The position numbers were made by a program, and so were the translations under genes. From Clostridia bacterium (GTDB taxonomy: Bacteria > Bacillota > Clostridia > JAQVDB01), in NCBI GenBank assembly GCA_028698525.1, contig JAQVDB010000002.1, forward strand, positions 1-57,621: 57,621 bases of DNA, read 5' to 3'. The notes under the pieces are model-generated. The model did not search any database. It was not told the origin of the DNA and was given only the letters and a program-made list of their open reading frames with translations. The first letter of the stretch is position 1. The number at the start of each line of letters is the position of its first letter. Of this stretch, positions 18,480 to 28,546 are shown one piece after another.

Positions 18480-18940
18480 AGCCCGAATATTACATTCGGA
18501 CTCCTCTCTATAAATAAAACGAGCACGTAATGATCTACCTTGCACTACCATGGATCGCTTATTACTCAGCCATAACCTTCCGGCTATGACCGAGCAGGTC
18601 ACCACCCATGATAATGGGTTGTCCGACCATGCAAAGTACCTGCACAGCCATATACAACCTCACGGCTGTATATGACCAACAATATCGGATAAGCATTTAA
18701 TTATCCAATAATCTTCGGCACTTTACATGATCTTTGCTCGACTCTATACGATAGGTTGGAATCTTATTGCAATCAAGCCTCAAAAGGTCATCGACTACAA
18801 TAAAACTTTTCCCCACCGTATAGAATCTTCCCTCCGACTGCATACAAGCCTTTCAACCTGTATGCAATCTTTGGCCGACCTATATATACCCCATTTAGAG
18901 TATATATAAGTCTGGGCTCAACCATTACGTACCCGACATT
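18480..18940 (-). ncRNA. Large structured RNA of unassigned class, copy 1 (paralog of 25036-25490)
   Basis: About 97% identical to copy 2 outside one swapped domain. It has the same closing helix (18520-18532/18923-18935) and a CATAAT -10 at 18942-18947. It lacks a credible ORF. Differences from copy 2 are structure-neutral on the minus strand. Confidence 0.7.
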
Positions 18941-24944: not shown

Positions 24945-25035
24945 ATTACTTTCGCTCCTTTTTTATATCAATTCTATTCATATATTATATACTAAAGACG
25001 GATAGTATTAAAGAAAAATGAGGTAAAATATCATA

Positions 25036-25490
25036 CAACAAAAGACCCAGAAAACTTCTGGGTCTTTATAAATAAAACGAGCACGTAATGATCTATCTTG
25101 CACTACCATGGATCGCTTATTACCCAGCCATAACCTTCCGGCTATGACCGAGCAGGTCACCACCCATGATAATGGGCTGTCCGACCATGCAAAGTACCTG
25201 CACAACCATATGCAACCAATGCGTTAAGCTGAGGCTGCATATGATCGAACATTACCAGACAAAATCTTCGGCACTTTGCATGATCTTTGCTCGACTCTAT
25301 ACGATAGGTTGGAATCTTATTGCAATCAAGCCTCAAAAGGTCATCGACTACAATAAAACTTTTCCCCACCGTATAGAATCTTCCCTCCGACTGCATACAA
25401 GCCTTTCAACCTGTATGCAATCTTTGGCCGACCTATATATACCCTATTTAGAGTATATACAAGTCTGGGCTCAACCATTACGTACCCGAC
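25036..25490 (-). ncRNA. Large structured RNA of unassigned class, copy 2 (adjacent to tRNA-Ala)
   Basis: TATAAT -10 at 25495-25500. Closing helix 25078-25090/25476-25488. At least 8 helices, including GAAA- and GGAA-capped hairpins. Strong intrinsic terminator (stem 25043-25050/25058-25065 plus U-run). Many G-U pairs exist only on the minus strand. Confidence 0.75.
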
Positions 25491-25594
25491 ATTTATTATA
25501 GTACCCTTTTTTATTGCATCTATTCCGGAATTTTTAAAGAATTATTATCAGATGATCTATACACATTATTGATGAGTTTTTAAAGATAGCAAAC

Positions 25595-25637: not shown

Positions 25638-25713
25638 TGGTGGAGATGATGGGACTCGAACCCACGACTCCCTGAATGCCATTCAGGTACTCTCCCAACT
25701 GAGCTACATCCCC
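25638..25713 (-). tRNA. tRNA-Ala (anticodon GGC), CCA encoded
   Basis: The reverse complement reads GGGGATGTAGCTCAGTTGGGAGAGTACCTGAATGGCATTCAGGGAGTCGTGGGTTCGAGTCCCATCATCTCCACCA. It has a G3:U70 identity pair, anticodon loop AUGGCAU and a GTTCGAGTC T-loop. Confidence 0.95.
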
Positions 25714-26950: not shown

Positions 26951-27733
26951 TTAAGAGTTAACAACTTGCTTATAGTATCCCTGGAGCTTCTTTATTATCC
27001 TTCTCTCCATCCTAGATACATACATTTGAGAAACCCCCAGCTCACTAGCAACCTTGTTTTGCGTTTTTTCCTCAAAAAACCTGGCATTTATAATCTTTTT
27101 CTCCAGCGGATTTAACCTTGAAAGACAATCATCTAAGAAATATTTATTTTCTATGTCCACCAATCCTTTTTCCTCTCTCCCAATCAATTCAAGCAAGCTT
27201 AAATCATTATCATCGCCTAAATTATCGTAAGTAGCTTCAATAGACTGAGGTGCATAGACTTGTCCAGATTCCATAGCTTCCAATATCTCTTCTTCATCTA
27301 CACCTAAATATTCAGCTATATCACTGACCTTAGGAGTTCTTTTTAATTTTTGTGTTAATTTTTCCTTTGACTTATTTATTTTATAATTTAACTCCTGTAT
27401 CCGCCTGGGTACTCTTATAACCCAACCTTTATCGCGAAAATATCTCTTTACTTCTCCAATAACAGTCGGGGTAGCAAAACTGGAAAATTCATATCCTCTG
27501 TCGACGTCATATCTTTCTACCGCCTTTATAACCGCTAAACTTGCCACCTGATATATATCATCATACTCTATTCCTCTATTAGCATACTTTTTAGCAATTA
27601 TTTCAGCAATATAAAGGTATCTGTGAACCAATTCATCCCTAATCTCTTTGTCTTTTGTAGCTTTGTACTCAGCAAATAATGCTTTATCCCCTTCATAAGC
27701 GGAGGAATTTTCTAAACCGTTTTTTTCAGGCAT
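26951..27733 (-). CDS. sigB: Alternative sigma factor, SigB type
   Basis: Sigma-70 regions 2-4 (RVPRRIQELNYKI, SQMYVSRMERR). It follows RsbV/RsbW homologs and resembles B. subtilis SigB more than SigF. Confidence 0.8.
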   Translation of the reverse strand: MPEKNGLENSSAYEGDKALFAEYKATKDKEIRDELVHRYLYIAEIIAKKYANRGIEYDDIYQVASLAVIKAVERYDVDRGYEFSSFATPTVIGEVKRYFRDKGWVIRVPRRIQELNYKINKSKEKLTQKLKRTPKVSDIAEYLGVDEEEILEAMESGQVYAPQSIEATYDNLGDDNDLSLLELIGREEKGLVDIENKYFLDDCLSRLNPLEKKIINARFFEEKTQNKVASELGVSQMYVSRMERRIIKKLQGYYKQVVNS

Positions 27734-27735
27734 AC

Positions 27736-28191
27736 CTACTCCTCCTCCGTAACAGATTTTCTCATTGTAAGCACAGTACCTCTGCCCTCATTAGACTTTA
27801 ACTCCACTTCATCCATGAGAGATTTTATTATAAATACTCCAAGCCCCCCTTCTTTAGGGTTGGATAGATCAGGCTTTTTTAATTTATCGACCTGCATTCC
27901 TTTCCCTTTATCCTTAACAGTTATTTCTATATTCCCCGGTTCAACTTTGAAATCAATAACAAAACTGTTTTCACATTCTGTACAGCCATGAAGTATTGCA
28001 TTAGTACAAGCCTCTGCTATTGCTACCTTAATATCTTCTATGTCTTCTATATTAAATCCAACCCTATTAGCGATAGCGGACGCAGTCAACCTTGCAACAC
28101 TCACATATTCAGGTTTGTTAGGAAGTATAAGTTGGATTTTATCATATATGCAATCTTCGCTGGATGCGGCAATTTGGGAAAAACTATTCAT
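27736..28191 (-). CDS. rsbW: Anti-sigma-B factor / serine kinase RsbW
   Basis: PNKPEYVSVARLTASAIANRVGF...IAEACTNAILHG closely parallels RsbW. The likely start is ATG 28191, behind GAGGAG. Confidence 0.85.
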   Translation of the reverse strand: MNSFSQIAASSEDCIYDKIQLILPNKPEYVSVARLTASAIANRVGFNIEDIEDIKVAIAEACTNAILHGCTECENSFVIDFKVEPGNIEITVKDKGKGMQVDKLKKPDLSNPKEGGLGVFIIKSLMDEVELKSNEGRGTVLTMRKSVTEEE

Positions 28192-28198
28192 AATAAAT

Positions 28199-28516
28199 TC
28201 ACTCCTCGACAATAAAAATCTTGTTTAAACCCGTTATCTCTAGCAGCCTTTTCACATTATCTCTAGGGCCTTTTAATACTATATTTCCATTATACTCTTT
28301 AACCCTTCTCAAAACCCCTATAAATACTCCCAAGCCTGTGCTATCAATATATACAAGATCATGCATATCCACTACCAAATCTGTCTTTTCTTTTTCTATC
28401 GGATCCAAAAGTTTCTCTTTTAACTTTGGCGCCGTATAAACATCTACTTCACCTTCGACCTTTACATACCAATTACCTTGTGCTTCATTTTTGGTACACT
28501 CCACATTAAAAGCCAT
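28199..28516 (-). CDS. rsbV: Anti-anti-sigma factor RsbV (STAS domain)
   Basis: STAS fold with the phosphorylatable-Ser motif YIDSTGLGV. The likely start is ATG 28516, behind GGAGG. Confidence 0.85.
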   Translation of the reverse strand: MAFNVECTKNEAQGNWYVKVEGEVDVYTAPKLKEKLLDPIEKEKTDLVVDMHDLVYIDSTGLGVFIGVLRRVKEYNGNIVLKGPRDNVKRLLEITGLNKIFIVEE

Positions 28517-28546
28517 AACCATAACCTCCAATACCGGATATATTAT

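Follow-up and report, generated by a model that had tools for sequence, protein, structure and literature searches.

The window, that is the whole stretch of 57,621 nucleotides that was analysed, contains two copies of an ORF-free element arranged as direct repeats on the minus strand. Copy 1 occupies 18521-18936, and the structured RNA core of copy 2, running from the 5' strand to the 3' strand of its closing helix P1, occupies 25079-25489. The two copies are separated by 6.5 kb and are the only ones in the 2.18-Mb assembly. The neighbours in the window are housekeeping genes (radical SAM, DtxR, Hom, YdcZ and tRNA-Ala); the tRNA-Ala(GGC) gene lies at 25638-25713 on the minus strand, just upstream of copy 2, and does not belong to the RNA. 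Near the RNA we found no effector gene such as a recombinase or nuclease, and a comparison of 19 loci gave no neighbour gene common to them. About 1.5 kb upstream of copy 2 there is an operon for an anti-anti-sigma factor, an anti-sigma factor and a sigma factor (26951-28531, minus strand). It passes the SigB/F/G subfamily model only, while its scores of 220 bits for the SigB and 194 bits for the SigF NCBIfam equivalog fall short of their cut-offs, but as the genome belongs to spoIVA-positive Clostridia the operon could be spoIIAA-spoIIAB-sigF.

The RNA is a free-standing non-coding RNA of about 410 nt that folds into a star of six arms, in which the closing helix P1 joins the 5' and 3' ends and encloses five long arms, P2 to P6. 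Both whole-RNA folds were far more stable than those of shuffled sequences (z = -16.9 for copy 2 and -18.9 for copy 1), with a fold energy of -229 kcal/mol for 463 nt. Four sequences alone showed double changes at 33 of 147 pairs. When the alignment was extended to 117 sequences, standard pairs filled 97% of the cells over 138 consensus pairs and double changes occurred at 101 of the 138, while sliding the partner strand by one to three columns over the whole RNA left only 37-42% of cells paired. Each copy in the window matched the full family profile with 135 of the 138 consensus pairs (nhmmer E values of 6.3e-117 for copy 1 and 1.6e-111 for copy 2). The bases of the arms share short motifs on the minus strand of both copies: AAGAU precedes P3, P4 and P5, GUCGR follows P2 to P5, and CCAGA precedes P2. 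Examples of these arm-base motifs are GGUCGGCCAAAGAU, CAGUCGGAGGGAAGAU and GAGUCGAGCAAAGAU, with GCCGAAGAU within P5. The RNA resembles a ring made up of recurring hairpin modules, and from their sequence the arm-base repeats could reflect either tandem duplication or repeated binding sites.

We searched for relatives of the element in three ways. Of 400 genomes from the same class, 20 had homologues by BLAST. A pattern scan over species-representative genomes gave at least 120 loci, and an nhmmer profile search found at least 128 full-length homologues in Bacillota, at least 117 of them distinct. Two Paludibacteraceae loci from the pattern scan (L037 and L070) had no nhmmer match and were set aside as chance pattern matches. 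Carriers included Desulfosporosinus, Desulfitobacterium and Dehalobacter, the spore-forming Negativicutes Pelosinus, Sporomusa and Propionispora, Bacillaceae (Bacillus, Ectobacillus and Tepidibacillus), and many Clostridia, among them Thermohalobacter, Caldicoprobacter and Wukongibacter. Several genomes had multiple copies, either in tandem or dispersed. The tandem arrays held two to three gene copies head to tail with a spacing of about 490 nt (L085:446-1845, L093:4122-5025, L108:2794-3695, L127:4406-5313 and L020:545-1779), and Thermohalobacter berrensis had three dispersed copies (L038, L039 and L044). A covariance-model scan of Rfam 15 (cmscan) gave no match to the RNA at gathering thresholds; with E values allowed up to 10 there was again none on the RNA, the best being LOOT at E 2.5. 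A full-text search of the literature found no description of this six-arm RNA family. The RNA is thus a large Bacillota family that is absent from Rfam.

We compared the family with the known large RNAs OLE (RF01071), ROOL (RF03087), GOLLD (RF02032) and raiA (RF03072). It resembles them in its length of several hundred nucleotides, its own promoter and terminator and its occurrence in Bacillota, and also in its covariation-supported helices, GNRA tetraloops, conserved junction nucleotides and peripheral helices of variable length. However, none of the four was matched by cmscan even at E values up to 10. The family also differs from such ornate RNAs in its single multi-way junction with repeated AAGAU...GUCGR arm bases, in having no partner gene such as oapA, and in carrying a sigma-G/F-like promoter in about half of its members. 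ROOL, GOLLD and OLE are reported to homo-oligomerise through loop contacts (PMC12286853). By analogy, oligomerisation through loop contacts is a possible role for the tetraloops of P5b, the inner hairpin of arm P5, and of P6.

Each copy has a -10 box of its own. That of copy 2 is TATAAT at 25495-25500 on the minus strand, with a GAATA -35-like element upstream, and a motif is seen upstream of the RNA across the family. The pattern GHATR-N17/18-CAnnnTA stood at a fixed distance from P1 in 54 of 109 upstream regions, against 0.8 in shuffled sequences; we take it to resemble the Bacillus sigma-G/sigma-F consensus. The terminators differ between the copies, and the hairpin and U-run of copy 2 (25035-25070, minus strand), identified by sequence comparison and folding, are not shared with copy 1. 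In the class sample, spoIVA was present in all 20 RNA-positive genomes, compared with 76% of genomes overall, and most spoIVA-positive genomes of the sample had no BLAST match to the RNA. These observations are consistent with the hypothesis that the family is linked to spore formers. A gene for a spore germination permease of the GerAB type immediately precedes the RNA gene in Ectobacillus funiculus (L047:2902-5079). A small sporulation RNA, CsfG, was considered as a possible identity. CsfG is reported to be a 136-nt sRNA on the reverse strand of the ylbH motif, conserved in endospore formers and with CU-rich loops (PMC3574147). The present RNA appears to share with it a forespore-type promoter and a restriction to endospore formers, but CsfG was rejected, as nothing like a 136-nt RNA with CU-rich loops is present here and no ylbH-family Rfam match was obtained.

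Contigs of copy 2 were present in RNA (metatranscriptome) libraries of three studies. These contigs spanned only 25081-25481, with the loop discussed below included; a contig from a DNA run, by contrast, extended into both flanks of copy 2. The contigs carry information on neither strand nor level and may include DNA carried over into RNA libraries, so that they lend weak support to transcription of copy 2. In one metatranscriptome run a contig stopped at 25081, directly against an Illumina adapter. This position is within P1, 3 nt from its end, and precedes the terminator hairpin, a hint that the P1 helix and not the terminator marks the mature 3' end.

The two copies differ most in arm P5. 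The original prediction had singled out 25199-25269 in copy 2 and 18641-18716 in copy 1 as a swapped, variable hairpin domain held between the strands of a 13-bp long-range helix. These two segments are the interiors of P5, and the 13-bp helix proved in both copies to be its outer stem, formed on the minus strand by 25273-25285 (5' strand) with 25183-25195 (3' strand) in copy 2 and by 18720-18732 with 18625-18637 in copy 1. Fold and alignment agree on this stem, which is paired in 97% of cells over 117 sequences. The interior has two parts. In copy 2, P5a is an internal junction of 24 nt (25249-25272) that starts with GCCGAAGAUU, and P5b consists, from the alignment, of a 5' strand (25233-25248), a loop of 15 nt (25218-25232) and a 3' strand (25202-25217), all on the minus strand. 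In copy 1, P5a has 40 nt (18680-18719) and P5b is a 16-bp hairpin (18644-18679) closed by a GUGA tetraloop, features supported by sequence and fold and, for P5b, by family statistics.

The smaller observations made on this arm held up as well. The plus-strand hairpin arms read catatGca (25207-25214) and tgCatatg (25236-25243) in copy 2, and catatAca (18649-18656) and tgTatatg (18667-18674) in copy 1. The predicted double compensatory change between them is present in the minus-strand RNA as G25238-C25212 in copy 2 and A18669-U18654 in copy 1. A second such pair, absent from the earlier account, is A25245-U25205 in copy 2 and G18676-C18647 in copy 1. The loop of copy 1 is indeed GUGA (plus-strand tcac, 18660-18663), and that of copy 2 is the 15-nt UCAGCUUAACGCAUU (25232-25218), which stands in place of the family tetraloop. 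The extra hairpin of copy 1, ggataa (18687-18692) with ttatcc (18701-18706), is real and reaches up to about 10 bp in the fold, where these six pairs form its core.

Across the family, P5a was the most length-variable part of the RNA, ranging from 6 to 93 nt (sd 19; 117 homologues). It was nearly absent in several members and polymorphic between strains, and in sequencing-run contigs of the present locus the only strain differences were in P5a, at 25250 and after 25260. As to whether the domain is hypervariable between fixed flanks, P5a varies widely in length but is not hypervariable in rate: among pairs of sequences with 95-99.5% scaffold identity, P5a identity was 0.92, compared with 0.88-0.91 for the P2, P3 and P4 loops, and so its rate of change is no faster than that of other loops. 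Judged from the alignment, P5a is an expansion stub that the RNA tolerates and whose length and sequence are hardly constrained.

P5b showed the opposite pattern. Its stems were 16+16 nt in all 117 homologues, its loop was 4 nt long in 115 of them, and the loop was GNRA in at least 103 (GAAA in 39, GAGA in 38, GGGA in 12, GUGA in 12 and GCAA in 2). Standard pairs filled 96% of P5b cells, with double changes at 12 of the 16 pairs, and slid-partner controls left 35-40% paired. Three G.U/U.G wobbles were nearly invariant (114, 114 and 107 of 117), as was the C-G closing pair (116 of 117). By these counts P5b is a strongly constrained structural hairpin, one of the most constrained in the RNA. The pair flagged in the original prediction toggles throughout the family (AU in 43, GC in 39 and GU in 17), and its compensatory change is therefore routine evidence for a helix and not a special event; on the alignment, the G-C/A-U difference between the two copies is ordinary helix-preserving covariation. 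Copy 1 has both the 16-bp P5b stem and the GNRA loop. Copy 2 keeps the 16-bp stem, and its 15-nt loop was the sole case among the 117 homologues listed.

The conservation pattern of P5b suggests what its loop does. Most likely P5b engages through its tetraloop in an intramolecular or intermolecular tertiary contact, which would help to hold the fold. We looked for a GNRA receptor with a mutual-information scan of the 103 GNRA-bearing sequences, and no column rose above the phylogenetic background. Against such a contact stands copy 2 itself: although its GNRA loop is gone, this copy seems fully maintained and occurs in RNA libraries, which would be unexpected if the loop were essential.

Arm P5 had been proposed to be either an ordinary peripheral expansion segment or a specificity-determining module of a programmable RNA. 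Structured RNAs can carry peripheral expansion segments, such as rRNA expansion segments, the peripheral helices of RNase P and the extensions of group I introns. P5a is like these, being optional, 6-93 nt long and strain-polymorphic between fixed flanks, and its rate of change equals that of other loops. P5b is unlike them in its invariant length and conserved tetraloop. The first proposal thus stood for P5a and failed for P5b, which is highly constrained.

The second proposal would make P5a and the P5b loop the guide or target-recognition loops of an RNA-guided system across the whole family. The IS110 bridge RNA, the omega RNAs of IscB and TnpB (including HEARO, RF02033) and crRNAs resemble the present case in that a constant scaffold carries a replaced internal segment, and here the interior of P5 does differ between two otherwise constant scaffolds, but in this genome only. 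Six other multi-copy genomes, with two or three copies each, had the same or nearly the same P5a and loop in all their paralogues. P5a is missing in several members, and in most the P5b loop is a 4-nt GNRA loop. In contrast to the guide RNAs, the family has no adjacent effector, be it recombinase or nuclease, no conserved neighbour and no match to the HEARO model of Rfam. We also ran blastn with the whole RNA against plasmid and phage collections and obtained no match. Loops of 15 nt are too short to be informative on their own in gigabase collections, in which several hits would arise by chance. The unaccelerated change of P5a, the identity of P5 between paralogues and the lack of an effector, plasmid or phage match together leave a family-wide guide function unsupported. 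We regard this reading as largely refuted and give it very little credence.

In the present genome, P5 was compared with the rest of the RNA. Outside the variable loops the two copies were identical at 345 of 355 positions (97%), and the loops of P2, P3, P4 and P6 were the same or nearly so, that of P2 differing at one of six positions. Inside P5, identity fell to 15 of 38 positions in P5a, 27 of 32 in the P5b stems and 0 of 15 in the loop. This divergence of the P5 interior equals the average of orthologues with 80-88% scaffold identity and is as large as that of orthologues about 83% identical, whereas the scaffold here is 97% identical. The gene thus combines, as a mosaic, a scaffold that is young with a P5 interior that is old. 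We infer that the scaffold was most likely homogenised by gene conversion or by a recombinational patch whose tract would end at the P5 stem. The two P5 interiors would then be old alleles, of which copy 1 holds the canonical one, and copy 2 would have lost its GNRA loop and gained a single-stranded loop of 15 nt.

A further explanation is that copy 2 is a decaying paralogue which, being redundant, would tolerate the replaced loop as a lesion devoid of function. In line with this, copy 2 alone in the family sample has lost a GNRA loop that at least 88% of members conserve, and a canonical second copy lies 6.5 kb away. However, copy 2 is as intact as copy 1: each has four deviations at 111 conserved columns, three of them common to both, and the same three of the 138 consensus pairs are missing in both. 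The P5b helix of copy 2 is kept by compensatory changes, its promoter and terminator are intact, and sequence specific to copy 2 occurs in RNA libraries of three studies. Decay is therefore quite unlikely, and to judge from their sequences both copies look functional.

The reading that we favour, at a probability of roughly six in ten, is that the P5 interior comprises an ordinary stub (P5a) and a constrained hairpin (P5b) of an uncatalogued RNA, that the mosaic pair of genes in this genome keeps two old alleles of it, and that it is not a general guide module.

The original prediction had also called for a search for sequences complementary to the variable loops, and in the genome itself this search did return a match. 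The loop of copy 2 has a perfect 14-nt complement at G000:C97:6296-6309, in the leader of a kinase gene and on its sense strand, and this was the sole match within one mismatch outside the RNA gene in the 2.18-Mb genome. Over 4.37 million positions on both strands, chance would give a 15-nt loop about 0.2 matches with up to one mismatch, and about 0.03 if 14 contiguous nucleotides are required; two to three loops were tested in this way. The loop of P5a in copy 1 had no complement within one mismatch in the genome. Counted from the ATG, the site covers -29 to -16 and borders on AAGGAGG from the 5' side, and the gene downstream encodes a 513-codon kinase of the FGGY family that is xylulokinase-like but falls under the equivalog cut-off.

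We then ranked the predicted duplexes of the loop with 1,830 candidate initiation regions. That with the kinase leader came first at -23.0 kcal/mol, followed by one at -19.7 kcal/mol, and in a k-mer test 19 of 20000 loop shuffles reached 14 contiguous complements in initiation regions; the test had been narrowed to initiation regions once the match was already known. Duplex prediction with the whole P5 interior against the same kind of regions was uninformative, as it ignores the intramolecular hairpin. The kinase leader itself folds (z = -3.7), with its Shine-Dalgarno region paired to an upstream U-tract and the complementary site at the hairpin apex, a position that makes a loop-loop contact geometrically plausible. 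This hairpin, which sequesters the Shine-Dalgarno sequence (L144:1462-1530, G000:C97:6261-6329), lies downstream of a divergent-looking gene for a TetR-family regulator, and the modelled fold may itself act as a cis-regulatory element.

These results raise the possibility of a lineage-specific antisense function, in which the loop of copy 2 would be the seed of a kissing duplex with the Shine-Dalgarno-sequestering hairpin of the FGGY-kinase mRNA, pairing would change translation or stability of that mRNA, and copy 1 would keep the ancestral role. Apart from the RNA gene itself, the genome has just one match to the loop with up to one mismatch, a perfect 14-nt complement beside a ribosome-binding site and on the mRNA-sense strand; it gives the best duplex of all the initiation regions, and it caps the sequestering hairpin. 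The loop, unique among the homologues listed, is carried by a hairpin that two compensatory changes have preserved; it was unchanged in four sequencing runs and is included in the RNA-library contigs. There is also a precedent in Bvs196 (S547), a 294-nt forespore-specific sRNA of Bacillus that is driven by sigma-F/G and has conserved stems and variable loops reported to pair with mRNAs (PMC9147052).

Bvs196 may serve as a functional analogue for the antisense reading of the copy 2 loop. Compared by description, it differs from the present family in that its fold is far less stable (-82 kcal/mol for 294 nt, where the RNA studied here reaches -229 kcal/mol for 463 nt) and in its fixed hinT-ecsA context, whereas the Bacillaceae members of the six-arm family lie elsewhere.

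Several points weigh against the antisense function. The restriction to initiation regions was post hoc, the chance expectation of about 0.2 or 0.03 matches applies to each of the two to three loops tested, and the P5a loop of copy 1 lacks a comparable match. Outside the species, the nearest Hom homologue shares 68% identity, a distance at which leaders are not comparable and relatives are too far removed for covariation between loop and site. A short templated insertion from the kinase locus would moreover yield the same match with no function attached. On this balance we consider the antisense reading possible but rather improbable, and the match between the copy 2 loop and the kinase leader, seen in sequence, is a lead and not a result. 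A broader form of the idea, in which an ornate scaffold RNA would double as a trans-acting riboregulator, with its P5 alleles kept distinct by selection while gene conversion homogenised the rest, is likewise tentative and seems to us doubtful. Still, the localised divergence of P5 taken together with the 14-nt complement hints at something beyond neutral peripheral variation.

For the favoured reading, in which P5 is a stub beside a constrained hairpin, arm P5 offers a natural dissection of an uncharacterised large RNA, in which P5a is free to vary while the length, the G.U wobbles and the GNRA loop of P5b are fixed. This contrast can guide structural and genetic studies of the family, both in choosing places to cut the RNA and in looking for its likely contacts. 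With its two copies, this genome in addition offers a ready-made experiment, as the same scaffold carries a canonical P5b loop in one copy and an altered loop in the other. Should the 14-nt complement in the kinase leader have no function, the pair is an ordinary case of peripheral variation and helix covariation. Should it have one, the pair would show that a structural RNA can gain base-pairing regulation by the replacement of a single loop.
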